DNA from: Pirellulales bacterium
GTDB taxonomy: Bacteria; Planctomycetota; Planctomycetia; Pirellulales; JAICIG01
Assembly: GCA_035532215.1 (NCBI GenBank)
Contig: DATKRK010000301.1
Span: 1,181-65,180 of the forward strand
Direction of reading: 5' to 3'
Length of the DNA: 64,000 nucleotides
Both the position numbers and the translations under genes were made by a program. A model generated the notes under the pieces. The model had not been told where the DNA came from and ran no database searches. It was given only the letters and a program-made list of their open reading frames with translations. The first letter of the stretch is position 1; every line of letters starts with the position of its first letter. This document shows positions 17,780-35,921 of the stretch, in pieces.

Positions 17780-17841
17780 GGGTTGGAGATGCTTGACTCT
17801 TCGCCGTCTGAACGCCCCGCGTTGACAACGCATACGATAAT

Positions 17842-18909: not shown

Positions 18910-18938
18910 GTCACCCATGGGGACGGAGTCCGCCCGAG
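18910..18938 (+). repeat. 29-nt motif copy 2 (identical to 8068-8096)
   Basis: Exact match read in sequence. It lies in the gap between the deacetylase and the next glycosyltransferase, 29 nt before the hairpin element. Confidence 0.8.
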
Positions 18939-18967
18939 CTCTGTCCCCAGCCCATCAGTTCGCGGTC

Positions 18968-19078
18968 AGCATCGAGGATTAAATAACCTCCCAAATTCGG
19001 GCAAAGTCGCCGCAAATCCGCCCCACTATTGGGGTTCCGAGCGGGTGTGTGTAGGGAAGTTATTTAATCCTCGATGCT
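18968..19078. repeat. 111-bp inverted-repeat (MITE/REP-like) intercistronic element, copy 1
   Basis: 25-nt arms agcatcgaggattaaataacctccc (18968-18992) and gggaagttatttaatcctcgatgct (19054-19078), 24/25 complementary. The right arm is identical to that at 37637-37661. Confidence 0.8.
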
Positions 19079-19080
19079 CA

Positions 19081-20388
19081 GTGAAGTCGAGATTTAAGCA
19101 GATCGGCTTCCATCAGATTCCCGACGTTATTTCCTGTTCGACCTGCCTGACGCCGCCTCACTTGAATCTCTTGTACCTAGTTCATCGAATTCCCTACCCG
19201 CCAAACCGCGGTGATCGAATTCGTTCGTATCATTTGTTGAGGTTCCTCGCGGCGCGGTACGACGTGTATTTGGCTTGCCTGGCCGATGAGCCGGTACCGC
19301 CGGCACACGAGGCGGCGCTCCGGGAGTTTTGTCGGCGGCTCGCCATCGTTCCGTTGGGACGCAAAACTCGCTGGCTTAATGCGGCTGCAAAACGGATCCT
19401 GGGCCGATCAGCCACTGAAGGGCTTTTTGAGTCGCCAGCGTTACGAAGAATCGTAAGCGACTGGGCCGGTCAAACGCGATTCGACGTCGTCTTCGCATTC
19501 TGTTCAAGCATGGTCCCCTACCTCGAATTGCCGGCCCTGCGCGATGTCCCGGCGCTCATCGACTTTGTCGACGTCGACAGCCAAAAGTGGTTCGATTATG
19601 CCGAGACCGCGACCGGGTTGAAGCGCGCCCTCTTTGCCAGCGAGGGCCGCCGCGTGCGGCGACTCGAAATCGACGCGGCGCGCCGCGCTCGCGCTGTAGC
19701 AGTCGTTAGCGAAGCGGAGGCGGAACTTTGCCGCGAGCATTGCGCTCCGACTCCGGTTTATGGAATCGGCAACGGCGTCGACCTCGACTATTTCGGCGCC
19801 GTCTCGCCCCCGGAAGATTCGGCAGACCAGCCCCATTGCGTATTTGTCGGCGCCCTGGATTATCGGGCGAACGTGGACGGCATCACGTGGTTTTGCCGCG
19901 AGGTCTGGCCCGAAATGCGGCGGCGATATCCACAAGCTACGTTCACCGCGGTAGGCCGTAACCCGTCGGCAGTCGTATGCCGACTGGCCGATTTGCCGGG
20001 CGTACAGGTCGTTGCCGACGTGCCCGACGTGCGGCCTTACCTGGCACGTGCGTCGGCGGTCGTGGCGCCCTTGAGAGTCGCTCGCGGTATTCAAAACAAG
20101 GTGCTCGAAGCCCTGGCGGCGCGCCGCGCCGTTGTTGCTTCGAGCGGCGCTTTGGACGGGCTCGACGTAGAAGCGGGGCGTCATGCTTTGTGCGCTGATT
20201 TGCCCAGCGAATGGATTACGGCCTTGTCGCGGCTGTTCGACGACGCCGCCTTGCGAAACGAGTTCGGCGCTTCCGGCCGCGCCTTCGTCGAATTGCACCA
20301 TGGCTGGGCGCCCCGGCTGGCGCCGTTCGGCGATTTGCTTTCGAACTTAATCACCCAGCGGCGTGCCGTCGCAGCCAGTTGCCAATGA
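19081..20388 (+). CDS. glycosyltransferase, PEP-CTERM/EpsH1-system-associated type (GT4-like)
   Basis: LLYLVHRIPYPPNRGDRIRSYHLLRFLA is the characteristic N-terminus of this family. There is no ATG: candidate starts are GTG 19081 (3 nt after the repeat) or TTG 19162 (giving M-NLLYLVH). The track start 18889 reads through the repeats and is rejected. Confidence 0.85.
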   Translation: MKSRFKQIGFHQIPDVISCSTCLTPPHLNLLYLVHRIPYPPNRGDRIRSYHLLRFLAARYDVYLACLADEPVPPAHEAALREFCRRLAIVPLGRKTRWLNAAAKRILGRSATEGLFESPALRRIVSDWAGQTRFDVVFAFCSSMVPYLELPALRDVPALIDFVDVDSQKWFDYAETATGLKRALFASEGRRVRRLEIDAARRARAVAVVSEAEAELCREHCAPTPVYGIGNGVDLDYFGAVSPPEDSADQPHCVFVGALDYRANVDGITWFCREVWPEMRRRYPQATFTAVGRNPSAVVCRLADLPGVQVVADVPDVRPYLARASAVVAPLRVARGIQNKVLEALAARRAVVASSGALDGLDVEAGRHALCADLPSEWITALSRLFDDAALRNEFGASGRAFVELHHGWAPRLAPFGDLLSNLITQRRAVAASCQ

Positions 20389-21290
20389 CACAAGACCTAA
20401 CCCTCATTCCGCCCGCAGATACTCCCTCGGTTTCCCCCGAAGCCGCTACGCCCGCCTCGGCGCCCGAGTTACCCGTCACGATCATCGAGCGGCGGCCGGG
20501 CTGGAAATTCGTCGACCTGGGCGAAATGTGGCGCTACCGCGAGTTGCTCTATTTTCTCGTCTGGCGCGACGTGAAGGTTCGCTATAAGCAAACCGTCCTC
20601 GGCGCCGCTTGGGCCATCCTGCAACCGTTGACGATGATGATCGTGTTCAGCCTGTTTCTCGGCCGACTGGGCAACATGGCGCACGGCGACTGGCCGTATC
20701 CATTGTTCGTGTTCGCGGGCTTGCTGCCTTGGACATTTTTTGCGACCGCCATCGCTCAGGCGGGCTCGAGCGTTATCGGAAACCAGAACCTGGTCACCAA
20801 GGTCTATTTTCCGCGGCTGTTCATCCCCTTGGGCGCGGTTGGCGCGGCGCTGGTCGATTTGGCGATCGCCTGCGGGATGCTTGCGGTGTTGATGCTCTAC
20901 TACGGCGTCTGGCCGGCGGGCGCCGTGGTATTGCTTCCAGTATTGGTGTTGATGTTGGCCGTGGCGGCGACAGGCGTGGGCGTCATGCTCTCGGCCCTCA
21001 CGGTGGCATACCGCGACTTCCGCTACGTGGTTCCTTTCCTGGTGCAGATCTGGATGTTCGCCACGCCCACCATCTACATGCAAGCCGACAAAGTCGTCAG
21101 CCCCAAGTGGCACAGCGTGCTTCCGCTCAACCCGGTCTTCGGCCTGATCCTCAATTTTCGCCAGGCCGCGCTCGGCGGCCCCCTCGACTGGTACGCCTTT
21201 ACTGTTTCGTCGGCCGTTTCGCTCGTGCTGCTCTTAGTCGGCTGCTTGTATTTCCGCAGAGTAGAGCGAAGCTTCGCGGATATCATTTGA
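20385..21290 (+). CDS. wzm: ABC-2 type polysaccharide export permease (Wzm-like)
   Basis: The ATG at 20385 overlaps the upstream stop (ATGA). YRELLYFLVWRDVKVRYKQTVLGAAWAILQP is the ABC-2 signature, followed by 6 predicted TM helices. Confidence 0.85.
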   Translation: MTQDLTLIPPADTPSVSPEAATPASAPELPVTIIERRPGWKFVDLGEMWRYRELLYFLVWRDVKVRYKQTVLGAAWAILQPLTMMIVFSLFLGRLGNMAHGDWPYPLFVFAGLLPWTFFATAIAQAGSSVIGNQNLVTKVYFPRLFIPLGAVGAALVDLAIACGMLAVLMLYYGVWPAGAVVLLPVLVLMLAVAATGVGVMLSALTVAYRDFRYVVPFLVQIWMFATPTIYMQADKVVSPKWHSVLPLNPVFGLILNFRQAALGGPLDWYAFTVSSAVSLVLLLVGCLYFRRVERSFADII

Positions 21291-21326
21291 AACCAGTAGC
21301 CCAGGTTCTGCGAGGACATATACACC

Positions 21327-22250: not shown

Positions 22251-22281
22251 TCGTCGTACGGTCGGAAGTGCTTCATCTACA

Positions 22282-23721
22282 ATGACTGGCGCCCGGATGA
22301 ATATGAAAGCGGCCGTCATACCAGCCCTCGTCTGCCTGGCGGTCAACGCCGCTTTGTTCGCCGCTGTCGCCGTCCGGCGGCCGCAGTATCTCGCCGATTA
22401 CGGTCAAAACGCCAATCCGGATGCCAAGCACTACGTGCTGCTCGGTCGCAATCTCATCGAGCATCACCACTACTCGCGCTCGTCCGGCCCCCCCTACCAG
22501 CCTGACATGCTTCGCACGCCGGTTTATCCGCTGTTCGCCGGGTTTCTGGATTTGCTCGGCGGAGCGGGGTGCATCTATGTCATGCAGGCGCTGTTGCAAG
22601 CAGTCTCGTGTTTAATCTTGTTCCAAATTGTCTCGCGGTGCTTCGGTCCAGTCGCCGGGGGGACGGCTGCGCTGCTGTTCGCCACGGATCTGATGCTGGC
22701 GGCTTCGAATTTCGAGGCGATGTCTGAGCCGCTGTGTAGCTTTCTCGTAGTGGCAGGATTGTTTTACTGGTTGAAAGCGTTTCATGCCGAATTTAGCTCG
22801 ACCGGGAGCTTTTGGTCGGCGGCGGCATCAGGCATATTCCTCGCCGCTGCCATCCTGACGCGTCCCGCCACGCTTTACCTGACGGGGCTGTTTGCTGTCG
22901 TAACCATTTTGGCGCCCGCGGAACGCGTCAGCGGGCGACAGCGTGGTTTGATGGCCGCCGTCATACTCGCTTCATCATTCGCGCCGGCCGGTCTTTGGAT
23001 TGCCCGCAACTATGCGGTGCATTCCCTTGCGCGGTTGAGCCCAGTGGATGCTACCATCATGGTTTACTTCGCAGGCGCCGGGGCATACCAGGTGGAGCGC
23101 GGAATCACCCTCGAGCAAGCGCAAGAGGCGATCTCCGAGGAGTTTCACCTACCGCCACATGTCGTCGTGCAAAACGACTTCAAGTCGAAGCGCACCGTCG
23201 CGGAAATGGACGCAGCCCTGCGCCGCGCCCGCTGGCCGGTGTTACTTAAGTATCCCAAGGCTCTGGTCATCTCATCCACGCTCGGCGTGGCCAAGGCGCT
23301 CGTGTCACATAACGTCGGCAACTGGGCTAACTTGTTGGCTCTGAAGTGGTCGCCTCCAGGCATGGGGAACCTGCTGCGGCTTCGAGGCGAGGGATTCCAA
23401 GCGTTGCTAGGGAACCCGCCCCTGCTTGTGGCCGTGTTCGCGTGGGAGTTACTGCACACGGCGGCAGTGCTCCTGTTGGCATTGATTGGAATCCTGTTCT
23501 CGCTGAAGCGCAGGGCGTTTCAACTCGCGCCGGCAGTGCTGCTGGCTGGATTCGCTTACTTCATTGTCATGATCGCGCCGTTCGGATTGGAAGCCTATTA
23601 TCGTTGCCGGGCTCCAGCAGCTCCATTTCTTTGTGCCTTTGCCGGTTGCGGCGCGGCTGCGCTCGTTAACGCACTAAGTCGGCGAAAAGAAAGCCTTACG
23701 CCCTCGCCCCTGAGTACATGA
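22282..23721 (+). CDS. polytopic GT-C-like glycosyltransferase (ArnT/PMT-like)
   Basis: About 12 predicted TM helices, with a first-loop sequence NPDAKHYVLLGRNLIEHHHY...YQPDMLRTPVYPLF reminiscent of the ArnT/PMT_2 family. The start was chosen after the upstream stop; ATG 22297 and 22303 are alternatives. Confidence 0.6.
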   Translation: MTGARMNMKAAVIPALVCLAVNAALFAAVAVRRPQYLADYGQNANPDAKHYVLLGRNLIEHHHYSRSSGPPYQPDMLRTPVYPLFAGFLDLLGGAGCIYVMQALLQAVSCLILFQIVSRCFGPVAGGTAALLFATDLMLAASNFEAMSEPLCSFLVVAGLFYWLKAFHAEFSSTGSFWSAAASGIFLAAAILTRPATLYLTGLFAVVTILAPAERVSGRQRGLMAAVILASSFAPAGLWIARNYAVHSLARLSPVDATIMVYFAGAGAYQVERGITLEQAQEAISEEFHLPPHVVVQNDFKSKRTVAEMDAALRRARWPVLLKYPKALVISSTLGVAKALVSHNVGNWANLLALKWSPPGMGNLLRLRGEGFQALLGNPPLLVAVFAWELLHTAAVLLLALIGILFSLKRRAFQLAPAVLLAGFAYFIVMIAPFGLEAYYRCRAPAAPFLCAFAGCGAAALVNALSRRKESLTPSPLST

Positions 23722-25019
23722 AGGGACTGCTGTTTACTTATGCCCTGACTTACGGGGGAGCGGTTGTCTCGCTCTTCAGTCCATGGTACGGGTTGTTGGT
23801 TTACGTTTGTTTCGCGATCATCAGGCCCGACTGGCTGTGGTTCTGGGCGGTGCCTCCCGGAAATTACAGTCGCATCGTCGCCATCGGGCTGCTTGCGGGC
23901 TGGTTCTTTCGAGGATTTGGCGATTGGCGTTTTGGCCGCGCGACGCCCAGCGTAGCATGTATAGCAGCGTTCATGTTCTGGACGGCGGCGAGCGCCGCCG
24001 GCGCCGTAGGCGATTCAGAGGCGGCGTGGCGCTTTGTCGAGGACCTCTCGAAAATCGTCTTGCCCTTTGTTGTCGCCATGACGCTCATCGAGTCAGTCGC
24101 CCAGCTCAAGCAATTGGCGTGGGTTATCGTGCTGAGCACAGGCTACGTGGCGTTCGAACTTAACCTGTCGTACTACCAGGGGTACAACCGGGCTCGAGAG
24201 GAGGGCCTCGGGCCGCTGGACAACAACGGCGCAGCCTTAATGATGGTCACCGCTGCCAGCGTAGCGCTGTTCCTCGCACTCGGCGAATCCCGTTGGTGGC
24301 GTCGCTTCTTGGCACTCGCGGCAGCCGGATTGATGGTCAATTGTGCCATGTTTTGCTTCTCGCGAGGCGGAATTCTAGCGCTGATCGTGACTGCGGTTGT
24401 CGGCTTCCTCGTAGTTCCCAAGCGAGGCGTACACTATTTACTCTTCCTGTTGGCGGTGCTTGCCGGATTTCGCCTGGCAGGCCCCGAGGTCGTAGATCGC
24501 TTTATGACGGTGTTTGCCGAAAAGGAAGAACGCGACGCGTCGGCCAGCAGTCGCATGGAGCTTGCGGCAAATTGCCTGGAACTCATGAAGGAACATCCTT
24601 TGTTCGGTATCGGTCCCATGCAGTTTCCGTTTGTATCTCATCGGTTCGGATGGCCGGAGGGAAAGCAAGCTCACACCATGTGGCTGCAAGTCGGCGCCGA
24701 ACAAGGAGTCCCCGGACTGGGATTGTTGTTGGGCTTTTACGGCGCCACGATAATCGGTCTCTGGAGATTCAGACGCCAACTGCTGGAGCGCGACCCATGG
24801 CTGCTCGACGTAGCGAGGATGGTCACGGCGTCCCTGGCAGGGTTTGGAGTCGCGGCGCATTTCTTGAGCGTGCAAACCGTTGAATTGCCTTACTACATCG
24901 CACTTTTAGGCGCGGGAGCCTTGAAGTGCGCAACATCGACCGGGGGCGCTCGCCTGGAAACGACGACGCGCGGAGGCAATTCCACCGTCTTTCTGCACAG
25001 TATTGCGGCGCCTTTATAA
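23718..25019 (+). CDS. O-antigen ligase/polymerase-like membrane protein (Wzy_C domain)
   Basis: Polytopic protein with CAMFCFSRGGILALIVTAVVG, the Wzy_C-type loop and helix pattern. Its ATGA overlaps the upstream stop. Confidence 0.8.
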   Translation: MKGLLFTYALTYGGAVVSLFSPWYGLLVYVCFAIIRPDWLWFWAVPPGNYSRIVAIGLLAGWFFRGFGDWRFGRATPSVACIAAFMFWTAASAAGAVGDSEAAWRFVEDLSKIVLPFVVAMTLIESVAQLKQLAWVIVLSTGYVAFELNLSYYQGYNRAREEGLGPLDNNGAALMMVTAASVALFLALGESRWWRRFLALAAAGLMVNCAMFCFSRGGILALIVTAVVGFLVVPKRGVHYLLFLLAVLAGFRLAGPEVVDRFMTVFAEKEERDASASSRMELAANCLELMKEHPLFGIGPMQFPFVSHRFGWPEGKQAHTMWLQVGAEQGVPGLGLLLGFYGATIIGLWRFRRQLLERDPWLLDVARMVTASLAGFGVAAHFLSVQTVELPYYIALLGAGALKCATSTGGARLETTTRGGNSTVFLHSIAAPL

Positions 25020-25141
25020 ATATATCTTATCGGAATGCAATTGCTTTTCGATTGACGCGAATGCACTTCGAACGAGTTTGCCTTGATACACTTCACTTTG
25101 AAATGAACATGCCGCGCGGCTCAGCCCAAACGTAAACTGAT

Positions 25142-26449
25142 ATGGAATCAACTATTCGCGTTCAAGGCCTCTCGAAGCAATATCGCCTCGGCGCCTCGCA
25201 AGGCGCCGGCTACCGGACGCTGCGCGAGTCGCTCTCGCACGCCGCCCAGCGAACGTGGGGCCGCGTCCGGCGCGTTTCACGTTCAGCGGACGCTAGCGAA
25301 GCCGCCACGCCCGACCGCTTCTGGGCCCTCGACGACGTGTCGTTCGACGTTCAGCCGGGCGAAGTGGTGGGCATCATCGGCCGCAACGGAGCGGGCAAAT
25401 CGACGTTGCTCAAGATTCTCAGCCGGATCACCGAGCCCACCCACGGCCGCGCAACCATCCGCGGCCGCGTCGGCAGCCTGCTCGAAGTCGGCACCGGCTT
25501 TCATCCCGAGCTGACCGGCCGCGAAAACATCTACATGAACGGCAGCATCCTCGGCATGGGCCGCCGCGAGATCGCCCGACGGTTCGACGAGATCGTCGCT
25601 TTCGCCGAGACCGAGCAGTTTCTCGACACGCCGGTGAAGCGATATTCGAGCGGGATGTACGTCCGCTTGGCGTTTGCCGTGGCAGCGCATCTTGAGCCAG
25701 AGATCCTTATAATAGATGAAGTCCTTGCGGTTGGCGACGCCTCGTTTCAGAAGAAGTGTCTAGGAAGGCTCGATGAGGTTGCACGCGGGGGACGGGCGGT
25801 ACTCTTTGTTAGCCATAACATGGCCGCCGTTATACAGGTATGTAACCGTGCATTAATGCTTAAGCGAGGTCGCGTCGACTCCGACGGCGCGCCGGCCACG
25901 ATTGTTCGACGCTATCTTTCATTGCAGAAATCTGCCCAAGATGATGAGGTAAATCTCGCCGTCCAACGGCGACCTTGCACAGTACGAGGTACGGCAATAC
26001 TTGACTCGTGCCGATTGGAGACGCCAAGCGAAGGCGATCCGTGGACGATGCCATATGGCGGTGTACTCGCATTCCGCGTCGGCGTCACTGTTCGCGCCGC
26101 TCTCGAGGATCTTGAACTCGGAATCGGCCTCTTTACAGCTTCGGGGTTTGAGGTTGCATCGGTACTGAGTACTGACGTGCTACAGTCGCGACCGATCGCG
26201 CCCGGCTGCTATGTCTTCTCTGTTTCATACCCGCGATTGTGCCTTATGCCGGGTTCTTACTACCTGGGGATCGGACTGCGATCGCGTGGCGCGTTCGAGG
26301 ATTATATTCCCGATGCGGTCCACTTTGAGATTCAATTGAATGAACGGTCTGCTCGGAATAACATCCATCTGCGAAAGGGATCGGTCGTTCCAGAGTTTAA
26401 ATGTACCATGTCACGTTGTTACACAAGCAACGTGGGCAATTCGGAGTAA
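25142..26449 (+). CDS. wzt: polysaccharide ABC exporter ATP-binding protein with C-terminal extension (Wzt/TagH-like)
   Basis: Walker A GIIGRNGAGKSTLL, signature YSSGMYVRLAFAVA, Walker B ILIIDEVLAVGD, then a C-terminal domain of about 190 aa as in Wzt glycan-binding modules. Confidence 0.9.
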   Translation: MESTIRVQGLSKQYRLGASQGAGYRTLRESLSHAAQRTWGRVRRVSRSADASEAATPDRFWALDDVSFDVQPGEVVGIIGRNGAGKSTLLKILSRITEPTHGRATIRGRVGSLLEVGTGFHPELTGRENIYMNGSILGMGRREIARRFDEIVAFAETEQFLDTPVKRYSSGMYVRLAFAVAAHLEPEILIIDEVLAVGDASFQKKCLGRLDEVARGGRAVLFVSHNMAAVIQVCNRALMLKRGRVDSDGAPATIVRRYLSLQKSAQDDEVNLAVQRRPCTVRGTAILDSCRLETPSEGDPWTMPYGGVLAFRVGVTVRAALEDLELGIGLFTASGFEVASVLSTDVLQSRPIAPGCYVFSVSYPRLCLMPGSYYLGIGLRSRGAFEDYIPDAVHFEIQLNERSARNNIHLRKGSVVPEFKCTMSRCYTSNVGNSE

Positions 26450-26452
26450 GTT

Positions 26453-27127
26453 ATGATTCGCCTGCCGAGAATAAAGCGTCGCCAACTTAAGTATCCCTGG
26501 CTGCCTAGTTGGGCTGACATCCGGAAGGAAAGTGTTGTCCATCCCCATGTCGAACAAGAATGCGCCCACTTGTTTGACGCCTTCAACACCGGAACCACAG
26601 AGCTTGAAGTGTTGAATTGGTTGCACGCTACAATCATGGCTTTGAAGCCGCGGCTGGTACTCGAAACCGGGGCAGCAAATGGGCTCGGTACAATAGCGCT
26701 TGCAAGCGCCTGTCGCGCTAATGGCTTCGGAAAGGTCCACTCGGTGGAGCTTGACGGCTCGCTCTGCGATGCTCTAGCGTCAAAGCTAGCGGCTCAGCAT
26801 CTTCGCGAGTATGTGGATATACATTGTTCAGATTCGCGCGACTTCCTGAGGAAGAATGAGCGAGTGTTCGATATTGGTTTTTTCGACAGTATGTGTGAAA
26901 TTCGAGCAGAAGAGTTTCGTATTTGCCTCGATCGCGGAACGGTTCAACAACTAGCCATGTTTCATGACACGTCCCCTATAAGGTGCGAGAGCCTCAAGGG
27001 GTGGCCGTCTGATGAGCAGCATGCCGAGTATCGTGAGCAGCTTCGCGAGTTCGCAAGTCACCCTCGATGTTCCGGAATGTTCGAGTCGACGTTGTCTAGG
27101 GGATTCGTGTGCCTCTTTCTTCGTTAA
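26453..27127 (+). CDS. class I SAM-dependent methyltransferase (O-methyltransferase-like)
   Basis: LVLETGAANGLGTIALA (motif I region), HSVELD, FFDS. Starts 4 nt after the wzt stop, inside the lower-GC patch. Confidence 0.6.
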   Translation: MIRLPRIKRRQLKYPWLPSWADIRKESVVHPHVEQECAHLFDAFNTGTTELEVLNWLHATIMALKPRLVLETGAANGLGTIALASACRANGFGKVHSVELDGSLCDALASKLAAQHLREYVDIHCSDSRDFLRKNERVFDIGFFDSMCEIRAEEFRICLDRGTVQQLAMFHDTSPIRCESLKGWPSDEQHAEYREQLREFASHPRCSGMFESTLSRGFVCLFLR

Positions 27128-27196
27128 GAGGCCGTAACAAAACCCTCCGGGAGCCCTGGGAAAGCTGGGTAAACATCCGGTTTTGTTACGGCCTCT
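27127..27196. terminator. 70-nt long hairpin immediately after the methyltransferase stop
   Basis: agaggccgtaacaaaacc (27127-27144) pairs perfectly with ggttttgttacggcctct (27179-27196). There is no T-tract, so terminator function is uncertain. Confidence 0.45.
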
Positions 27197-27344
27197 AAGG
27201 GTTGAGCGTCCTTCCAATCTCGACGCTAATCTTCACGTGATTGCCGCCGCCTTCGAACGCGTCGGGATGGGCGGTAGTGGCTTATATCGGCTGCGCTGAG
27301 CGTCGCTAGGCCAATTAGGGGGTGTTAGATCTTCGCTGCTACGG

Positions 27345-28262
27345 ATGCGATTGCTCAAACAGTTCGTGCGTAAGGCGTACGCTGGCACGACCCTTCGATT
27401 TGGGGGTGGCTTGGGAGACCAGCTTCTGTGCACCACGGTCGCGCATGAGCTTTCGGTGCGAGGCCACGGGCGGATTTGGATCCTTTCGGAACATCCAGAA
27501 ATCTTCCGAGGAAATCCCGCTGTTACGGGAAGCGTCCCTCCAAAGAGTATTCGAGCAGGGGTAGTTGAGAAGCTCACGGGTTATGAACGTTCATTTTATT
27601 TGCAGTATGATATGCGCGATGTGCGAGCGGATGTATCGTGCCCGCCGACCGAACACATAATTGCAACTATGTGTCGGCAGGCGGGGGTTAGAGGTGATGT
27701 TAGGATCCGACCTTATCTATTCCTAAACAAGTCGGAAATAGCTGTTGCCGGATCCTACCGTGGATATTTGGCAATTCAGAGCAGCGGATTGAGAGCTAGG
27801 CACCCGATTCCGAACAAAGAATGGTATCCAGACCGATTTGCGGAGGTAGCTAAAACGTTGTTAAAGCGCCGCGATATAGTGCAGATCGGATCCGCTTCCG
27901 ACCCGGCCGTGCCTTGCTCAATTGATTTGCGGGGAAAGACGAGTATTCGAGAGTTGGCAGCGGTGCTGGCTAACGCGAGACTGTTGGTCGGTCTGGTAGG
28001 CTTTCCAATGCACTTGGCTAGGGCGGTTGGCTGCCCTGCGGTTGTTGTATATGGTGGCCGCGAGAGACCGGACCAGTCCGGATATTCGTGTAATGTCAAT
28101 CTCTACAACGCGGTACCGTGTGCCCCATGCTGGGCTTACTCGCGGTGTGATTATGAGCGAAGGTGTATGGCCGAGATTCAACCGTCGGACGTTTTGGCCG
28201 GCGTTGCTGCATTGCTCGAGCGCCCCACGGGCGAGTTGGCGTGTGACATAGTGCAATTGTGA
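27345..28262 (+). CDS. glycosyltransferase family 9 (heptosyltransferase-like)
   Basis: C-terminal pattern LLVGLVGFPMHLARAVGCPAVVVYGGRERPDQSGY...NAVPCAPCW, the GT9 donor-domain signature with the terminal C-x-P-C. Confidence 0.75.
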   Translation: MRLLKQFVRKAYAGTTLRFGGGLGDQLLCTTVAHELSVRGHGRIWILSEHPEIFRGNPAVTGSVPPKSIRAGVVEKLTGYERSFYLQYDMRDVRADVSCPPTEHIIATMCRQAGVRGDVRIRPYLFLNKSEIAVAGSYRGYLAIQSSGLRARHPIPNKEWYPDRFAEVAKTLLKRRDIVQIGSASDPAVPCSIDLRGKTSIRELAAVLANARLLVGLVGFPMHLARAVGCPAVVVYGGRERPDQSGYSCNVNLYNAVPCAPCWAYSRCDYERRCMAEIQPSDVLAGVAALLERPTGELACDIVQL

Positions 28263-29422
28263 GCCACAGAAACGGTACTGCGTATTTGGTCATGAATTGG
28301 TACTTTCTCTATCGGGGACGGTCGACGCCCAGCGGCGGCCACAAGCAAGTCCGGCTGACGGTTGAGCTACTGAACGAATTAGGCGTGCGCGCAGAGTTGC
28401 TGGTCGACGGAGAGATGGCCGATCAGCAGCTTTACGGTCTGGATACGCCGGTGGCTCCCTTCGGTTTCGCGGAGGCCGCTCGTAGAGTTCAGCCGGACGA
28501 CGTCGTGGTTTTCCCTGAAGCAAACTTGCAGCGGTACATTGAGGCGTCTGCAACGTGGGTCTGTCGAAAGGCGGTGACGAATCAAAATGCGTTTTATGCG
28601 ATCCGCAATCGCATTCCGGGAGGATACCGCCAGGCTGGCGTTGAATTCGCCATCGCGAATTCTCGATTCGTGTCGGATGTGACCGCTAGCTATCTGGGCC
28701 TGGCGCCAGAGCGCGTGTTTCTTGTGCCGCATTGGATTGTGCGCGGGCCGTTCGTGCCTGCCGAAGTTGATGGCGAGAAGCGACGCCTGGCAGTGTGCTA
28801 CATGCCGCGCAAGCTGCCGGATATTGTCCGCCGGGTGCGCGAAGCGGTGCAAGAAACAGAGCCCGACGTGCCCTGGGTGGAAATCGATGGCATGCCCGAG
28901 AACGAGGTGGCCCGTTGCTTCAAGACGAACGCCATCTTGTTCTCGTCGCAGGACCAAGAGGGCTGTCCGCTGCCGGCCCTTGAAGCGATGGCCTGCAACT
29001 GCATCATCGCCGGATTTCGCGGGACAGCGAACTTCCCGCATCCTTACGCCACGGGCGAGAACGGGTTTTGGGCTGCTGATCGTTCGGTTTCCGAAGGGGT
29101 CGCCAAGGTGTTGGATGCCATTCGGACCGTGCGAGAGAAGAGTGCGGAATTTGAAAAAGCAAGGGCCGCAGGCCGGTCGACGGTTCGGGCATTTTCCCAC
29201 GCGGCCGTCAGCGCAGCGCTCTCGGAGATGGTGGATGTCGTGACGCAGCAATCCTATGCCGAGCGGCAGATTTCGCCCGCTCCGTTGGATTGGAAGAGCC
29301 GCGCGGGCGTCCGACGGCTGATGCTTGGCGACAGCTATGCGGATTGGCTCGCCAGGACGCGGGCGAAGCTAAGCAGAATCCTTCGGGGGCCCAGCGGCGC
29401 CCGCGAAGAAAGGGTCGTTTGA
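28259..29422 (+). CDS. glycosyltransferase, GT-B fold (GT4-like)
   Basis: FSSQDQEGCPLPALEAMACNCIIAGF is the E-x7-E region. GTG 28259 overlaps the upstream stop (GTGA); ATG 28292 is an alternative. Confidence 0.65.
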   Translation: MSHRNGTAYLVMNWYFLYRGRSTPSGGHKQVRLTVELLNELGVRAELLVDGEMADQQLYGLDTPVAPFGFAEAARRVQPDDVVVFPEANLQRYIEASATWVCRKAVTNQNAFYAIRNRIPGGYRQAGVEFAIANSRFVSDVTASYLGLAPERVFLVPHWIVRGPFVPAEVDGEKRRLAVCYMPRKLPDIVRRVREAVQETEPDVPWVEIDGMPENEVARCFKTNAILFSSQDQEGCPLPALEAMACNCIIAGFRGTANFPHPYATGENGFWAADRSVSEGVAKVLDAIRTVREKSAEFEKARAAGRSTVRAFSHAAVSAALSEMVDVVTQQSYAERQISPAPLDWKSRAGVRRLMLGDSYADWLARTRAKLSRILRGPSGAREERVV

Positions 29423-29430
29423 GAGGGATT

Positions 29431-30267
29431 ATGGAACCGCAAGTCCTTCCTATTTTGATTAAGACCTGGGCCGGTCGGCAGCGGCACGACTTCCGCTATA
29501 TCCGCCGGAGTTTGCCGAGCCTGTTGGCGAGCGCCCTGCCGGAGGGCGCGCGCGTCGTGATTGTCAACGATCAAAGCACCGACCCGCGGCTGGAGCCGTT
29601 TCTGAAACAGTTGGCGGCTGGCGACGCAAGGGTCGAGTTGTGGACGAATCCGGAGCGGATGGGGCCGAACCGGGGCCAAGCCTACAACTTTCCGCGGATC
29701 TTGGAACGCTTTCCCAATGCCAAGCTCTTCGGCCTGTGCGACGACGACATCGTCTACCACCCGGGCTGGCTACAGCGGCTGGTGCGCGTGTCGGAGGAGG
29801 CCGCGGAGGCAGGATTGAGCGGCATTTTCAGCGCGATCAACTTTCCCACTCGGCCGTGCTACGCGTCCGTGCAGTTGCCGACGAGCGAGGTGCTGCTGAA
29901 AGAGCGGCAGGCTGCGTTCAATTGGTTGGTGCCGCGCGACATCTACGAACGGGTGGGGCCGTTTCGCGACGCCGGGGTGGCATTCGATACGGACTACGCC
30001 AACCGGATGGCGCCGCTGGGAATACCGGTCATCTGCCTGAAGCCCAGCTTCGTGCAAAACATCGGTTACCTGGGAGCGTACCAGTCCGACAACAGCCACA
30101 CCGCCAGGGACTACGTTGGCAATGTCGGGTGGTATCTCCGGGCCCACTCGATGGCTTGGACGATGCGCGGGTATGCTGCCCGGCTGGCGCGCGGGGCGAC
30201 GCGCCGCGTTAGTCGGATCGCGCGGGCCTACGCGAGGCCCGCCGAAAGGGCCTCCGGAGGCGAATAA
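29431..30267 (+). CDS. glycosyltransferase, GT-A fold (GT2-like)
   Basis: VVIVNDQSTDPRLEPFL and the DxD-like GLCDDDIVYHPGW. The start was moved to ATG 29431, after the upstream stop. Confidence 0.6.
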   Translation: MEPQVLPILIKTWAGRQRHDFRYIRRSLPSLLASALPEGARVVIVNDQSTDPRLEPFLKQLAAGDARVELWTNPERMGPNRGQAYNFPRILERFPNAKLFGLCDDDIVYHPGWLQRLVRVSEEAAEAGLSGIFSAINFPTRPCYASVQLPTSEVLLKERQAAFNWLVPRDIYERVGPFRDAGVAFDTDYANRMAPLGIPVICLKPSFVQNIGYLGAYQSDNSHTARDYVGNVGWYLRAHSMAWTMRGYAARLARGATRRVSRIARAYARPAERASGGE

Positions 30268-30325: not shown

Positions 30326-31174
30326 ATGGTCATTGAAAAAGACGAGATTTCCCGCTGGTTCCCGGATACGGTTTATTACAGGCAGCACGCCGAGCGGCTG
30401 GCCTATTCCTTTTCTCGCTTGCCGGCGTTGAAGCCTGGGTTCAGTTGCCTGAGCATTGGGTCATGGGGGGCCGAATCGCCGTTGCTGACGAATGTGCTGG
30501 GGGCGGAGCGCGTCGTTTGCGTGCGGGCGCCGGACCAGGGCGTTCCGCGTCGCGAGCGACGAATCATTCAAGCGCCCAACGCGTTGGGCGAGTGCGAGGC
30601 GGAACTGCACGCATTGAACCTCGAGACCGAGCCGTTGCCAGCCGATCTCGAAGCGTTCGACATGGTCCTGATGTGGGAAGTGATCGAGCATCTCTGCATC
30701 GACCCGGCATTCATGGTTGCACAGGCGATCAAGGCCCTCAAACCGCGCGGCGTGATTTCGATCACGACTCCCAATGCGCTGTGGCACGTCTACACGACGG
30801 CCCAACTTTTCGGCGTCAACGCGCTGGGCCTGAAATTGCAACATCACAAGCCCTTTGCCACTCATTGGAGACTGTACTCTCCCGCTGAGGTCGCCGAACT
30901 GACTGAAAGGATGGGTTGCGAGCTTGGCTGCGTGGATAGCTTTTTGAACGAGGCGCCGTTTTCGCTCAAATCGCGCATCCTGCAACATGCGCTGCAGTTC
31001 ATGCGGCGCAAATCCGGGAACGGACGATGTTCGTTTGGACAATTCGTCTACGTGCTTGCCGAAAAGCATCGGGATGCCGAGATTTACCGTCCCCAGTGGC
31101 TGTATCCCAGGACGGGCGACGAGGGCGGGCAAGTCCACCTCCGTCAGCATGCGCCTGCCGTGACAATCGCCTGA
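30326..31174 (+). CDS. class I SAM-dependent methyltransferase
   Basis: CLSIGSWGAESP (motif I-like), FDMVLMWEVIEHL, LKPRGVISITTPN. Confidence 0.75.
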   Translation: MVIEKDEISRWFPDTVYYRQHAERLAYSFSRLPALKPGFSCLSIGSWGAESPLLTNVLGAERVVCVRAPDQGVPRRERRIIQAPNALGECEAELHALNLETEPLPADLEAFDMVLMWEVIEHLCIDPAFMVAQAIKALKPRGVISITTPNALWHVYTTAQLFGVNALGLKLQHHKPFATHWRLYSPAEVAELTERMGCELGCVDSFLNEAPFSLKSRILQHALQFMRRKSGNGRCSFGQFVYVLAEKHRDAEIYRPQWLYPRTGDEGGQVHLRQHAPAVTIA

Positions 31175-32264: not shown

Positions 32265-33484
32265 AGGCGATCCGGTCCGTCGCCAGGTTAATTGGGATCG
32301 TTGCGGCGGCGGCGCTCAAGGCCGCGCGTGCTTTGCTATGCGGCGACCGCGAAGCCGCCGCCATGCACGTTCGCGTGCTGACGCTGGCGCTGCTCGACGA
32401 TGCGTCGCAGGCGCTGGTCCGCGCGCAGCGAACGTTCTTTGGCCCGCTGCGGCCGGACGAGATCGATCGCATTTTGATCGTCAAGCTCGACCGGATCGGT
32501 GATATGGTGACGACCACGCCGGTGTTCGATGCGCTGCGAGCAAAGTTCCCCTCGGCCCGGCTCGATATCGTCGCTCATCCGGCGCCGCTGTCATTGCTGG
32601 CCGACGACGAACGGATCGGCCAGCGGATCGCTTACCGTTCGTGGCTTTATCATCCGCTCGCCATCCTGCCGCCGGGACCGCGCACCTGGGGGCTGGTGCT
32701 GCGGCTGATGTGGCGCAGGTATCCGCTCGTAGTCTGTTTGCGGGGCTCGTTTTCCTTCCTGCCGCTCGGCCTGGTCTCGCGGATGACGGCCACGAAGTTC
32801 ATCGAGGGCGAGCCAGTGATTCGGCGGTACTTGCGCTCGATCGAAGAACTGCTCGGCCCGCTGAGTGATCCGCCGCCGCGGCTGCGCGTATCGGCGGAGA
32901 ATCGCCGCTTCGCCGCGGAATTGTTCGCCGGCGGCGAGGCCGACGGCCCGCGGGTCGCGATCCACGCCACTGCCAGCTCGCAGGCCAAAATGTGGCCAGC
33001 CGAGCGGTTCTCCGCGCTGGCTGACGCGTTGCGGGACGAGCATGGCGCGGCGGTACACTTCCTGGGCGCCCCGAGCGATCGGGGCGCGCTGGATGCCATT
33101 GCCCGGCACGCGCGGCACGAGCATGCCTACCATATGTCGCTCAGCCTACCGCAGGTGGCGGCCGTGATTGAAGCTGCGGACGCATTCATCGGCAACGACT
33201 CGGGATTGGCCCACATAGCCGCCGCCGTGGGCACGAGGATGGCGGTGATCTGGGGCGCCCCGAATTTGAGCATGGCTCGCCCCAGGGCCGACGAGCAAAC
33301 TTGTACTATCCTTTATCACGACCTGCCTTGCCGGCAAGGCTGTCCAGAGTTCCGCTGTAACAATCCGAACCGGCTCGAGTGTTTGCTGAGGACGGAAGTC
33401 TTGGATGTGTTCGGTGCGGTCTCCGAACTGCTGGCTCGCGGGGCCGAAGCGACAGAGAAAGAAGCATGCAGCCGGCCGACCTGA
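32249..33484 (+). CDS. glycosyltransferase family 9 (heptosyltransferase-like)
   Basis: ILIVKLDRIGDMVTTTPVFDALRAKFP (GT9 N-domain) and FIGNDSGLAHIAAAVGTRMAVIWG (GT9 C-domain). The GTG start is uncertain. Confidence 0.85.
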   Translation: MRPTVKAIRSVARLIGIVAAAALKAARALLCGDREAAAMHVRVLTLALLDDASQALVRAQRTFFGPLRPDEIDRILIVKLDRIGDMVTTTPVFDALRAKFPSARLDIVAHPAPLSLLADDERIGQRIAYRSWLYHPLAILPPGPRTWGLVLRLMWRRYPLVVCLRGSFSFLPLGLVSRMTATKFIEGEPVIRRYLRSIEELLGPLSDPPPRLRVSAENRRFAAELFAGGEADGPRVAIHATASSQAKMWPAERFSALADALRDEHGAAVHFLGAPSDRGALDAIARHARHEHAYHMSLSLPQVAAVIEAADAFIGNDSGLAHIAAAVGTRMAVIWGAPNLSMARPRADEQTCTILYHDLPCRQGCPEFRCNNPNRLECLLRTEVLDVFGAVSELLARGAEATEKEACSRPT

Positions 33485-34929
33485 GCCGAGTTCGTACGAT
33501 TCCGCTGGAGACGCGGGCCAACAAAGTCGCGCTGGAGCGTTTCGCGCGTCCGCCGCGCGCGGGGGCTTCCTTCGCCGACTTTGCCGCATCGCTGCCCGCG
33601 ATCTTGGCGGGAGAAGAATTCCGCCAGGTCGTCCAAGCGATCACGGCAGCCTGCCGACGCCGGCGGCCCGTGATTCTGGCCATGGGCGCCCACGTCATCA
33701 AGTGCGGGCTGAACCCGGTGGTGATCGACTTGATGCGGCGAGGCGTCGTGACTGGCTTAGTGCTGAACGGTTCAGGGGCGATCCACGACTTCGAGATCGC
33801 GTTGGCGGGCGAGACTTCGGAAGATGTGGCCGCGGGGCTGCGAGACGGAACGTTTGGCATGGTCCGAGAGACGGGCCAGTTGATGAACGAAGGGATCAAC
33901 TGCGTGAAGCAATCGCCCGAGAGTGGGCTGGGGATGCTTCTGGGCCAGCAGTTGGAAGCCATTGGCGCGCCCAATCAGGACCAGAGCCTGCTGGCGATGG
34001 GGAGAAAGTTGGGCGTGCCTGTCACTGTCCACGTGGCGATCGGCGCCGACATCATCCACATGCACCCTTCGGCCGACGGGGCGGCGATCGGCCAAGCCAC
34101 GTTCAACGACTTCCGCATCCTATGCGCTGAGCTAGGCGAGCTATCGGGCGGGGCGTATCTGAACGTCGGCTCGGCAGTCGTTTTGCCCGAAGTGTTTTTG
34201 AAGGCGTTCACGGTGGCCCAGAACTTGGGCGCGGACCTGCACGACTTCACGACCGTCAACATGGACATGATTGCCCACTATCGGCCAGGTGAAAACGTTG
34301 TGCGGCGGTTGGCGCCGATCGGGGGCGGGAGCTACACGCTGCTCGGGCGGCACGAGTTCATGGTTCCGCTGCTGGCTCAAAGCATCGTCGAGTCACTGGC
34401 GGATGATGCGGTCGATTCGGCGGCGGCGCCCTCGGGCTCTGGCGGCAAGCTTGTCGGTTTGGATGAGTTGTTGCGGCTGCGCAACGACTGGCGGAGACAG
34501 GGCCGCCGGGTTGTTTGGACGAATGGCTGCTTCGACTTGTTCCATGTCGGCCACCTCCGCAACTTGCAAGCGGCGCGGCAACACGGCGACGTGCTGGTCG
34601 TAGGCGTCAATAGCGACGCGTCGGTACGGCAACTGAAAGGGCCGGAGCGCCCTGTTATACCGGCAGTGGAGCGTGCAGAAATCATTGCCTCGCTGGGTTG
34701 CGTGGATTGCGTGACAGTGTTTGACGAAGCGACGCCCGAGCCGCTATTGCGGCGACTACAGCCCGATGTTCATTGCAAGGGCGCCGAGTACGCCCCCCCA
34801 TACGGAAAACCGATTCCCGAACGAGAGACGGTCCAGGCGTACGGCGGTCGCATCGAGTTTATCCCGCTGGTGCCTGGCATATCGACTACGGATGTTCTGG
34901 AGCGGATAAGGCTGGAAGCGAAAGACTGA
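33466..34929 (+). CDS. fusion: N-terminal deoxyhypusine-synthase-like domain + C-terminal heptose-1-phosphate adenylyltransferase (RfaE domain II / HldC-like)
   Basis: C-terminus VVWTNGCFDLFHVGHLRNLQAARQHGDVLVVGVNSD carries the HxGH cytidylyltransferase-fold motif. The N-terminal part of about 345 aa (VILAMGAHVIKCGLNPVVIDLMRRGVVTGLVLNGSGAIHDFEIAL) parallels the DHS-family pattern by eye. The start was moved to ATG 33466. Confidence 0.8.
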   Translation: MQPADLSRVRTIPLETRANKVALERFARPPRAGASFADFAASLPAILAGEEFRQVVQAITAACRRRRPVILAMGAHVIKCGLNPVVIDLMRRGVVTGLVLNGSGAIHDFEIALAGETSEDVAAGLRDGTFGMVRETGQLMNEGINCVKQSPESGLGMLLGQQLEAIGAPNQDQSLLAMGRKLGVPVTVHVAIGADIIHMHPSADGAAIGQATFNDFRILCAELGELSGGAYLNVGSAVVLPEVFLKAFTVAQNLGADLHDFTTVNMDMIAHYRPGENVVRRLAPIGGGSYTLLGRHEFMVPLLAQSIVESLADDAVDSAAAPSGSGGKLVGLDELLRLRNDWRRQGRRVVWTNGCFDLFHVGHLRNLQAARQHGDVLVVGVNSDASVRQLKGPERPVIPAVERAEIIASLGCVDCVTVFDEATPEPLLRRLQPDVHCKGAEYAPPYGKPIPERETVQAYGGRIEFIPLVPGISTTDVLERIRLEAKD

Positions 34930-34943
34930 CGGAGTTGAGGTAC

Positions 34944-35921
34944 ATGGCGACCCAAAACGATATTGTCGAGATTGCCGAGCGCTTCCGCGGCCGGCGGATT
35001 CTGGTTGTGGGTGATGTGATGCTAGACGAGTACATATGGGGAAGCGTCGAGCGCATCTCGCCCGAAGCGCCGGTACCGGTGGTTCAGGTGCAGCGGCGGA
35101 GCCACGTTCCCGGTGGGGCCGCAAACACGGCCGCCAACGTGGCCAGTCTTGGCGGTCTACCGATATTGGGCGGCGTAGTAGGCCACGACCTCTACGCGGA
35201 ACTGCTTCGCGAGAAGCTCGGGGAAAGCAGCGTGGAAGCCTCGGGGTTAGTTGCCGACGCGCAGCGCCCCACGACCTGCAAGACGCGCATTGTCGCCCAC
35301 GACCAACAGATCGTGCGAGTCGATTGCGAACAGCGAAATACGTTGCCGGCCGATGTCGAGGAGTCGTTGCTTGCGTGGGCCCGCGAGCAGATCAAAGATG
35401 TGGATGCCTGTATCCTTTCGGACTATGCGAAAGGAGTCGTCTCGCCGCGGCTGGCCCAGGGACTGATCCAGGCGGCCCGCGCCGCCGGCAAGCCGTTGAT
35501 CGTGGACCCTAAGCCCGACGGCTTCGCGAAGTACCGGGGGGCTACGCTGGTTAAGCCTAACCTGCTGGAGGCCGAGCGCGTCTGCAATCGTCGCCTCGAT
35601 GGGGATGAGCAGTTGCGCGCGGCAGGGAGCGCGTTGTGTGAATTGCTGGAGGGTAGCGCTGTGTTGATCACGCTCGGCTCGCGCGGCATGATGCTCTTCC
35701 GCCCCGGTGTGGCGCCGGTCGGCGCGGCGGCCACCCAGCAGCAGGTTTTCGATGTGACCGGCGCCGGTGATACCGTAGCCAGCGCGCTGGCAATGGGTCT
35801 GGCAGCCGGCATTTCGCTCGACGAAGCGGCGCGCCTGGGCAATCGCTGTGCGGGAATCGCCGTCGGCAAGGTGGGGACGAACACGGTTACGCTTGACGAG
35901 TTGCTGGCTGATCATTGTTGA
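34944..35921 (+). CDS. heptose-7-phosphate kinase (RfaE domain I / HldA-like, PfkB family)
   Basis: ILVVGDVMLDEYIWGSVERISPEAPVPVV and the PfkB motif DVTGAGDTVASAL. The start was moved to ATG 34944. Confidence 0.85.
   Translation: MATQNDIVEIAERFRGRRILVVGDVMLDEYIWGSVERISPEAPVPVVQVQRRSHVPGGAANTAANVASLGGLPILGGVVGHDLYAELLREKLGESSVEASGLVADAQRPTTCKTRIVAHDQQIVRVDCEQRNTLPADVEESLLAWAREQIKDVDACILSDYAKGVVSPRLAQGLIQAARAAGKPLIVDPKPDGFAKYRGATLVKPNLLEAERVCNRRLDGDEQLRAAGSALCELLEGSAVLITLGSRGMMLFRPGVAPVGAAATQQQVFDVTGAGDTVASALAMGLAAGISLDEAARLGNRCAGIAVGKVGTNTVTLDELLADHC

Follow-up and report, generated by a model that had tools for sequence, protein, structure and literature searches.

In ATP-binding cassette (ABC) transporter-dependent polysaccharide systems whose ATPase, Wzt, carries a carbohydrate-binding domain (CBD), a terminal methyl, phosphomethyl or Kdo group stops elongation and is held between the CBD and the hinge helix of the nucleotide-binding domain (NBD) before export (PMC9445017). 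Exchange of such machinery is itself known. The closest precedent for what we describe here is the CPA 'TET' operon of Pseudomonas syringae (wzm-wzt-wbdD-wbdA; Jayaraman et al. 2020), which is exchanged between lineages and determines lipopolysaccharide (LPS) type; the locus is conserved up to wzm, and wzt-wbdD-wbdA forms an exchangeable allele whose phylogeny is incongruent with the core genome (PMC7820976). In the hybrid O-antigen cluster of Burkholderia cenocepacia IST439, a low-GC block (56% compared with 66-67%) with wzt, wzm, a methyltransferase and glycosyltransferases has been read as a recombinational import from B. multivorans, with 79-96% amino acid identity to that donor (PMC5462993). 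We analysed a stretch of 64,000 nucleotides (the window) from a Pirellulales bacterium (assembly GCA_035532215.1, contig DATKRK010000301.1, positions 1,181 to 65,180 of the forward strand), which holds a Pirellulales (Planctomycetota) exosortase-associated polysaccharide locus with a Wzm/Wzt ABC exporter. A patch of low GC content begins inside its wzt gene. Probably this patch is an export-specificity module that homologous replacement brought in from a lineage of lower GC content, and its arrival would have exchanged termination and export specificity together.

The patch resembles the TET operon of P. syringae in being a divergent, exchangeable block of wzt, an O-methyltransferase and a glycosyltransferase, with the same logic of transport, termination and elongation. 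It differs in that its junction lies inside wzt, between the ABC signature and Walker B, whereas TET exchange is described at the level of genes; in that its methyltransferase (MT24) is a 224-residue enzyme of PF13578, similar to catechol O-methyltransferase (COMT) and not to WbdD, and its glycosyltransferase is of family GT9 and not a WbdA-type GT4; and in its planctomycete host and exosortase-linked locus, where wzm and wzt are not adjacent. The evidence for the cassette in the window comes from sequence comparison. Like the B. cenocepacia block it lies as low-GC DNA within an otherwise native cluster, but that block comprises whole genes with an identifiable donor, and the patch here has an intragenic left edge and no donor that could be found. 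The literature searched describes exchange at gene level only. What is new here is the set formed by a COMT-like methyltransferase and GT9, the phylum and locus type, and the recurrence across phyla of a junction inside wzt.

The average GC content of the window is 60.9%. Two-change-point likelihood segmentation of positions 24000-30000 placed plain-GC breakpoints at 25690 and 28310, with GC contents of 0.599, 0.538 and 0.622 in the successive segments, confirming as real the lower-GC patch that a preliminary description of this DNA had put at about 25.69-28.30 kb. The patch is the lowest-GC stretch of 2611 nt in the whole 64 kb (minimum at 25701; 0.08% of sliding windows are as low). Most of its 60-nt lines (27 of 44) have 42-55% GC, as that description had stated; it had also put GC back at about 65% from 28321, but the subsequent lines range over 52-67% and are not a clean 65%. 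The patch genes (the 3' part of wzt, MT24 and GT9) have a GC content at third codon positions (GC3) of 0.53-0.55, compared with 0.60-0.82 for all remaining genes in the window. Within wzt GC3 drops from 0.82 to 0.53, with the best change-point at nucleotide 25673 (codon 178), a two-log-likelihood support interval of 25640-25691 and a log-likelihood ratio (LLR) of 20.8; the highest value reached in 2000 permutations was 12.0. The GC and GC3 profile proposed earlier as a check thus gives a step at about 25.7 kb that is quantitative and significant. The right-hand compositional boundary (27842..28774, + strand) is soft, with a GC3 change-point at 28214 and the plain-GC breakpoint at 28310.

The step divides the ATPase domain of Wzt. 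The NBD motifs are complete in the translation (GRNGAGKST; YSSGM, residues 168-172; ILIIDE, residues 188-193; VSHN, with the H-loop His225), and the domain matches PF00005 with 84.6 bits and the Aquifex aeolicus Wzt structures 8DKU and 7K2T at E 5e-72. The 5' segment of wzt (residues 1-177; 25142..25672, + strand) encodes an N-terminal extension, Walker A, the Q-loop and the ABC signature and has a backbone-like GC3 of 0.82. The distal NBD (residues 178-262; 25673..25927, + strand), with Walker B, the D-loop, the H-loop and the hinge region, has a GC3 of about 0.5 and lies inside the patch. The drop had been placed right after the Walker B and H-loop region, but the actual step falls between the signature YSSGM and the Walker B motif ILIIDE. 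The description of the NBD as native-like applies to residues 1-177, which are high in GC3 and backbone-like, and not to the distal NBD, some 85 residues of which are low in GC. What was exchanged is thus the C-terminal domain together with the distal third of the NBD, and not the C-terminal domain alone.

The putative crossover zone, given by the GC3 support interval (25640..25691, + strand), encodes RYSSGMYVRLAFAVAAH, which is the longest near-invariant run of residues in the family (columns 250-266 of alignment A1), and coincides with the near-invariant run YSSGMYVRLAFAVAAHL, which lies past the ABC signature and ahead of Walker B. In a comparison of 119 homologues, mean identity is 77% for residues 178-220 and 84% for residues 61-177, and with conservation so similar on the two sides selection for codon accuracy cannot place a step at residue 178. 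Nor is the step intrinsic to the gene, since GC3 is flat along wzt in the orthologues at loci L001, L002 and L008 (LLR 1.6-3.5). Nucleotide identity between the window and L008 falls from 0.81-0.82 over residues 61-177 to 0.69 over residues 178-235; for the step-free control pair L008-L003 it is 0.74-0.80 and then 0.79 over the matching segments.

The closest backbone relative, L008, comes from a Pirellulales metagenome-assembled genome (MAG) and is collinear with the window on both flanks. Amino acid identities on the left are 44% for the TPR protein, 40% for EpsI, 61% for the priming transferase, 66% for the deacetylase, 63% for GT4, 76% for Wzm and 50% for WzyC, and on the right 60% for a GT2 (GT2b), 68% for the sulfotransferase, 56% for a second GT9 (GT9b), 72% for HldE and 68% for the hexapeptide transferase. 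The Wzt proteins are 74% identical over residues 1-177 and 67% over residues 178-262. Between the Wzt NBD and GT2b no homology was found between the two loci, and it resumes at GT2b, at 29290; the intervening L008 cassette encodes, besides a C-terminal domain that matches no Pfam family, an acyltransferase, a GFO-type oxidoreductase, a DegT aminotransferase and a GT2. A second relative, L010, from a Pirellulaceae MAG, shares the left backbone and has a GC3 step of its own, even stronger than that of the window, from 0.88 to 0.53 (LLR 32.5), at the same residues, where YSSGMYVRLAFAV meets AAHLEPEIL. In its low-GC patch the Wzt_C domain is a different one, and two FkbM/RfbT-like methyltransferases come after it. 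RfbT of Vibrio cholerae O1 is the terminal perosamine methylase of the Ogawa/Inaba switch, a small stand-alone enzyme acting on the non-reducing end of an ABC-exported O antigen; this likeness bears on the L010 cassette and not on the window, whose MT24 is of a different methyltransferase family. The three loci have common flanks (Wzm 64-76%, WzyC 50%, Hexapep 62-68%) and three different cassettes between them, L008 and L010 being distant relatives (50-76% amino acid identity) and not strains of one species. The three related loci thus have three different sets of a CBD with modifying enzymes at one position, two of them with the same start point in wzt.

The first complete domain in the patch, the Wzt C-terminal CBD (residues 263-435; 25928..26449, + strand), matches PF14524 over residues 291-400 (33.9 bits; cutoff 30.4). 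Its AlphaFold2 model (pLDDT 91.7) is an all-beta beta-sandwich, and Foldseek ranks 1-17 are all Wzt CBDs (8DL0, 8DKU, 6O14, 8DKY, 7K2T, 2R5O, 5HNO and 5HNP; E 9e-8 to 1e-5), from A. aeolicus (6O14, 8DKY), Escherichia coli O9a (2R5O) and Raoultella terrigena (5HNO, 5HNP). The Wzt-type beta-sandwich whose presence was to be checked is therefore there. The two-domain architecture, an N-terminal NBD and a C-terminal beta-sandwich, is that of E. coli O8/O9a (Klebsiella O5/O3) Wzt, with 2R5O matching at E 2e-6 and a TM score of 0.58-0.63; the CBDs are only 16-18% identical. The best sequence and fold match for both NBD and CBD is A. aeolicus WzmWzt (6O14, 8DKY, 8DKU, 7K2T). There the methylated-sugar cap, 3-O-methyl-mannose, has the CBD on one side and the hinge helix of the NBD on the other (PMC9445017), and structure 8DKY shows the A. 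aeolicus CBD bound to 3-O-methyl-D-mannose; a cap held by CBD and hinge together offers a reason why the distal NBD would be transferred along with the CBD. The window CBD differs in being 19-22% identical to that of A. aeolicus and in its methyl-pocket residues. The CBD is far less conserved than the NBD, and its nearest sequences, in L001, P0003 and L005, are 42-45% identical.

MT24 (Methyltransf_24; 26453..27127, + strand) starts 3 nt past the wzt stop codon and is a class I S-adenosylmethionine-dependent O-methyltransferase of the COMT and caffeoyl-CoA O-methyltransferase type (PF13578, 35.8 bits; GC3 0.55). Its 224 residues are modelled as a single compact alpha/beta domain (AlphaFold2 pLDDT 94.5) that matches the cation-dependent O-methyltransferases 3TFW, 6JCL and 8C9T, which have the catechol/caffeoyl-CoA fold. 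The model shows no kinase domain, coiled-coil, extra domain or long helix, and no WbdD chain occurs among the PDB sequence matches at E<=1. A WbdD-type terminator was therefore rejected: MT24 belongs to another methyltransferase family (PF13578, COMT-like), and unlike E. coli WbdD it has no kinase, no coiled-coil ruler and no detectable sequence similarity to the WbdD structures. As in E. coli O8/O9a the methyltransferase lies in the same cluster as wzt, and the logic by which a cap stops elongation and licenses export is expected to apply here by analogy. The A. aeolicus paper names no capping methyltransferase (PMC9445017). Gene linkage makes MT24 a candidate chain-end capping enzyme whose cap would be read by the CBD.

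The last gene of the patch (27345..28262, + strand; GC3 0.55) encodes a GT9-family glycosyltransferase, a putative heptosyltransferase. Its match to PF01075 (42.7 bits; cutoff 22) spans profile positions 102-236 only, the C-terminal half, and NCBIfam matches to heptosyltransferases II and III are weak and far under their cutoffs. With a hairpin described below, these genes make up the content that the preliminary description had listed (Wzt with ABC_tran and Wzt_C domains, Methyltransf_24 at 26453-27127, GT9 at 27345-28262 and the hairpin), all of which is present.

In the window wzt, MT24 and GT9 are adjacent and co-oriented (25142-28262, + strand), and similar arrangements occur elsewhere. 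We picked loci by the most similar CBD or the most similar methyltransferase, and these come from at least two phyla. The order Wzm-Wzt(Wzt_C)-MT24-HldE-GT9 is found in L001, L004 and L005, with hldE between MT24 and GT9, Wzm-Wzt-MT24-MT24-GT9 in L088, and Wzt-MT24 on the P0003 contig; the complete genome of a cultured verrucomicrobium, Horticoccus luteus (L087; CP080507.1 1871028-1885765), has Wzm-Wzt(Wzt_C)-MT24-GT9-GT1, with identities to the window of 50% for MT24, 42% for GT9 and 36% for the CBD. The MT24 orthologues (50-67% identical) stand directly after a Wzt_C-type wzt in all six (L001, L004, L005, L087, L088 and the P0003 contig), and the GT9 orthologues (33-49% identical) downstream of MT24 in L001, L004, L005, L087 and L088. 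By comparison, in 80 loci drawn from GTDB species representatives solely for a similar NBD, wzt never has an MT24 homologue as its neighbour, and a recognisably similar CBD is present in only one. The limits of the patch, enclosing the distal NBD, CBD, MT24 and GT9, therefore match those of a co-travelling gene block.

Phylogenies of the two parts of wzt, which had been suggested as a further check, gave incongruent nearest relatives. Trees were built by neighbour-joining from 35 Wzt proteins with 200 bootstraps. The nearest relatives of residues 1-177 are P0034/L003 (82%), P0027, L008 (74%) and L010 (71%), and P0034 is 68% identical even over the variable first 60 residues, where the family mean is 29%. 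In essentially every bootstrap the sister of this segment is P0027/L003(P0034), whose C-terminal domains are unrelated to that of the window. The sister of residues 263-435 is L001, in 200 of 200 bootstraps, and residues 178-435 group with L005, P0003 and L001, the MT24-linked set. An exchanged cassette, as the preliminary description had proposed, is thus supported by the GC3 step, the incongruent halves of wzt, the CBD fold, the break in synteny and the different cassettes in L008 and L010. From composition and synteny we infer both the transfer and its direction into this locus.

Intragenic steps are not confined to the window. A GC3 change-point with LLR >12 was found in 13 of 80 further wzt genes (L071, L019, L005, L010, L020, L026, L034, L074, L021, L050, L051, L038 and L048), and in every one of them GC3 falls. 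GC then stays low for 1.5-3 kb before recovery, as in Synechococcus sp. GFB01 (0.66, then 0.44, 0.44, 0.42 and 0.48, then 0.62); in L005 and L019 the whole downstream region stays low in GC and only the 5' NBD stands out. With the window included there are 14 support intervals, of which eight overlap the block from the signature to Walker B (residues 168-193) and four lie at 197-242, around the H-loop, while the boundary between NBD and CBD is touched by only two. If diverged alleles recombine by homology, junctions are expected just there, in the most conserved coding DNA. The pattern is not an artefact of MAGs, since two assemblies from isolates, Synechococcus sp. GFB01 (L071, LLR 54) and Vacuolonema LEGE 07170 (L074), have strong steps too. 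The presence of this intragenic signature in 13 of 80 wzt genes of many phyla suggests a general route of surface-glycan diversification, one relevant to phage, tailocin and immune escape.

The events that we propose are as follows. About 2.6 kb of DNA from a lower-GC lineage, running from roughly 25673 to 28260 and encoding the distal third of the NBD, the CBD, the COMT-like O-methyltransferase and GT9, would have replaced the resident segment. The left crossover would have fallen past the ABC signature and ahead of Walker B, in the DNA for the invariant peptide YSSGMYVRLAFAVAAHL, the place at which diverged alleles resemble each other most. GT9 and MT24 would build a modified non-reducing chain end; this cap would halt elongation, and the CBD with the adjoining NBD hinge would recognise it before the polymer is loaded into Wzm/Wzt. 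Carriage of the distal NBD, with the hinge, alongside the CBD would preserve a co-adapted interface. Because the cap would be made and read by one block, a swap of the block would change termination chemistry and export specificity jointly. Export specificity and chain-end chemistry would then be exchangeable as one unit, and a crossover in the conserved ATPase core instead of at the domain boundary would leave the recombinant with its NBD hinge and CBD still together. For annotation this means that wzt genes should not be handled as single evolutionary units.

A wider claim can be built on these data, which we regard as doubtful: that Wzt-CBD, the COMT-like methyltransferase, (HldE) and GT9 form a cross-phylum 'terminate-and-export' module, its cap being a heptose added by GT9 and O-methylated by MT24, which would be new for ABC-dependent glycans, and that the invariant signature-Walker B and H-loop blocks serve as universal crossover sites into unrelated polysaccharide loci of Planctomycetes, Verrucomicrobia, Cyanobacteria and other phyla. 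Given the linkage to GT9 and HldE, the CBD ligand and chain terminus might, at low confidence, be a methylated heptose, and the polymer of the window probably contains heptose, unlike the E. coli mannan. Conservation of the Wzt_C-MT24-GT9 triad suggests a terminator system that has yet to be characterised and which, occurring as it does in the cultured H. luteus, is experimentally tractable.

Several results weigh against the import of a module that exchanges termination together with export. The right edge of the patch is diffuse, with a GC3 LLR of 9.2 against a permutation maximum of 8.5 and a support interval of 27842-28774. No integrase, transposase or insertion sequence, or tRNA target was found among the genes in 20-36 kb, and the patch edges carry no meaningful direct repeats; lacking hallmark genes over 20-36 kb and flanking repeats at the patch edges, a mobile genomic island was rejected, and homologous recombination is the better model of the exchange. 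A tree of residues 178-262 alone has no resolution, leaving GC3 to set the position of the crossover. No donor or near-identical copy of the patch was found in the databases searched, where the best matches were 45% for the CBD, 67% for MT24 and 49% for GT9: a search with full-length Wzt gave a best non-self match of 57%, one with the CBD only gave three weak matches (<=41%), and a GTDB species scan with Wzt gave no close congener (best 56% in Opitutaceae and 52% in Pirellulales). A closer relationship of the patch than of its flanks to some known lineage was likewise rejected, identities to L001, L004 and L005 being uniform. Of the 14 step loci, 11 have a methyltransferase one or two genes downstream of wzt, and so do 7 of 12 step-free controls, so an adjacent methyltransferase was rejected as a mark of step loci; pairing of CBD and methyltransferase is general to the neighbourhoods of CBD-type wzt genes and not tied to the GC step. 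In a low-identity alignment the A. aeolicus methyl-pocket residues L300, T346, A348 and H350 correspond to G, G, G and R; with these not conserved the CBD ligand is not transferable by homology, and it is probably different from that of A. aeolicus. The product, moreover, may be something other than an LPS O antigen, given an exosortase-linked locus and a ligase of the PEP_O_lig_1 type. Finally, the 5' segment has a GC3 of 0.82, above the 0.66-0.76 of its immediate neighbours, and could be the imported piece.

The pocket result bears on an account in which the exchange is real but MT24 is not the chain terminator: its substrate would be a residue within the chain or a nucleotide-sugar precursor, and the CBD would read something else, such as the sugar added by GT9 or the repeat. 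MT24 has a generic COMT-like fold without a ruler, coiled-coil or kinase, the CBD lacks the methyl-pocket residues known from A. aeolicus, and the locus contains other methyltransferases, at 30326-31174 and 36727-37548. Yet MT24 is translationally coupled to wzt across a 3-nt gap and no gene is linked more tightly to this CBD subtype, as six other loci show, while it is missing beside 80 wzt genes with other C-terminal domains; the different CBD of L010 travels with different, RfbT-type methyltransferases; and for both E. coli O8 and A. aeolicus it is established that Wzt CBDs read methyl caps (PMC9445017). We regard this account as possible, if unlikely.

That the 5' part of wzt is itself the imported piece seems less plausible still. 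A gene-conversion tract of some 530 bp from a high-GC wzt allele or paralogue would here overlie a resident low-GC wzt, perhaps through repeated GC-biased conversion of conserved NBD DNA, and the low-GC wzt-MT24-GT9 would be older, with edges at gene boundaries. The GC3 of the core of the 5' segment (0.82-0.87) does exceed that of WzyC (0.68), PMT2 (0.68) and Wzm (0.76), and in most step loci the plain GC of the 5' NBD is 0.03-0.08 above the upstream flank; the two loci in which only the 5' NBD stands out, L005 and L019, with downstream DNA low in GC throughout, fit as well, and the closest relative of the 5' segment, P0034 (82%; 68% in the first 60 residues), comes from an unrelated locus. 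Against this, the low GC, the minimum of the window, stops about 2.6 kb downstream and the genes beyond have a GC3 of 0.69-0.79; the wzt of L008 has high GC3 throughout, which makes high GC3 the norm of the lineage; the break in synteny with L008 and L010 is on the 3' side and not the 5' side; and amino acid composition explains part of the plain-GC excess of the NBD. A wzt paralogue that could act as the conversion source was looked for in the window and not found.

We consider it very unlikely that no transfer took place, with native DNA having a lower GC3 because codon selection is weak in genes of poor conservation or low expression. Polysaccharide loci are compositionally ragged (in this one 36727-37548 has a GC content of 0.54 and 39920-41146 one of 0.57), and CBD conservation is far below that of the NBD. 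The step, by contrast, is abrupt (about 50 nt) and lies inside the conserved NBD, 85 codons ahead of the poorly conserved domain; MT24 is well conserved across phyla (50-67%) yet low in GC3; the orthologous genes of L001 and L008 have a uniform GC3 of 0.71-0.78 across wzt, MT24 and GT9; and the synteny break coincides with the patch. Least credible of all is a metagenome-assembly chimera in which contigs of two organisms were joined at the conserved wzt motif, for although the source is a MAG and the junction falls in the most conserved stretch of the gene, both flanks are syntenic with L008, so that a chimera would have had to switch twice and the second time in DNA that is not conserved, the reading frame of wzt is unbroken, CBD, MT24 and GT9 are a natural continuation of wzt as in the complete H. 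luteus genome, equally strong steps occur in the isolate assemblies L071 (LLR 54) and L074, and the block DNA identity of diverged alleles, about 80%, is too low for long exact k-mers.

Directly after the MT24 stop codon lies a hairpin (27127..27196), a perfect 18-bp inverted repeat with a 34-nt loop, which has a folding free energy of -43.4 kcal/mol (z -3.8), is present in a single copy in the window and occupies the position of hldE in the relatives. No conserved hairpin follows MT24 in those relatives, and an Rfam search over 24900-28400 gave no family, with a lone chance match to mir-624 on the hairpin (E 0.21). Its arms (AGAGGCCGTAACAAAACC and GGTTTTGTTACGGCCTCT, 17-18 nt) do occur as inverted pairs in at least seven unrelated metagenome contigs (L132 3262-3334, L137, L129, L097, L125, L122/L143 and L098/L147/L152), with loops of 16, 33, 34 or 65 nt and usually right after a TAA or TAG stop codon. 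The whole 73-nt element of L132 is 98.6% identical to that of the window, and the two have nothing else in common. Conservation of the stem sequences while the loops vary suggests a protein-recognised element, terminator-like or REP-like.

The gene that follows GT9 encodes a GT1-family glycosyltransferase (28259..29422, + strand; PF00534, 28.8 bits) with a backbone-like GC3 of 0.69. By synteny it belongs to the variable region, being without a counterpart in L008, L010, L001 and L087.

The polysaccharide locus as a whole is a single co-oriented array from about 8 kb to 52 kb. Its left part comprises genes for exosortase EpsH, a chain-length/AAA protein, a giant TPR protein, EpsI, a priming sugar transferase, a deacetylase and a GT4; the middle, Wzm, GT2, a GT-C (PMT_2) protein, an exosortase-type Wzy_C/WaaL-like ligase, Wzt, Methyltransf_24 and GT9; and the right part, GT1, GT2, a methyltransferase, a sulfotransferase, a second GT9 and ADP-heptose synthesis genes. 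A Wzm/Wzt exporter is thus found (8176-25019) inside an exosortase locus of the EpsH/EpsI, PEP-CTERM type, together with a TPR protein of 1462 residues. The backbone gene wzm (20211..21290, + strand), for the ABC-2 permease partner of Wzt, matches PF01061 (ABC2_membrane) with 53 bits, has a GC3 of 0.76 and a 76% identical orthologue in L008, and lies 3.9 kb upstream of wzt. Three genes separate the two, encoding GT2 (21327-22250), the GT-C/PMT_2 protein (22018-23721) and the Wzy_C ligase (23718-25019), and wzm and wzt are split in the same way in the Pirellulales relatives L008 and L010. The GT2 and GT-C pair (21327-23721) is missing from L008 and resembles a GtrB/ArnT-type periplasmic glycan-modification pair placed into the backbone. 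The best match of the ligase is 'PEP_O_lig_1, exosortase A system-associated O-glycosylation ligase' (137 bits, under the 188-bit cutoff), and the acceptor of the exported glycan may not be lipid A-core.

Between ligase and wzt is an AT-rich spacer of 122 nt (25020-25141); L008 has no spacer there, its ligase stop codon overlapping the wzt start. No sigma-70-type promoter consensus was found on the + strand of the spacer, and scans for sigma-70 promoters and intrinsic terminators gave counts no higher than shuffle expectation. The ADP-heptose synthesis genes (33379..35921, + strand) are of the backbone, match NCBIfam TIGR02198 (371 bits; cutoff 345) and TIGR02199 (171 bits), are 72% identical to those of L008, and are the likely donor-sugar supply for the GT9 enzymes. 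The first (33379-34929) has a GSU2086-family domain fused N-terminally to the rfaE domain II adenylyltransferase, and the rfaE domain I kinase is a separate, overlapping open reading frame downstream of it (34773-35921), an arrangement that is the reverse of the domain order of E. coli HldE. The methyltransferase at 30326-31174 sits between GT2b and the sulfotransferase, which adjoin each other in L008, and further compositional lows in the locus occur at the methyltransferase at 36727-37548 (GC3 0.60) and the GT4 at 39920-41146.

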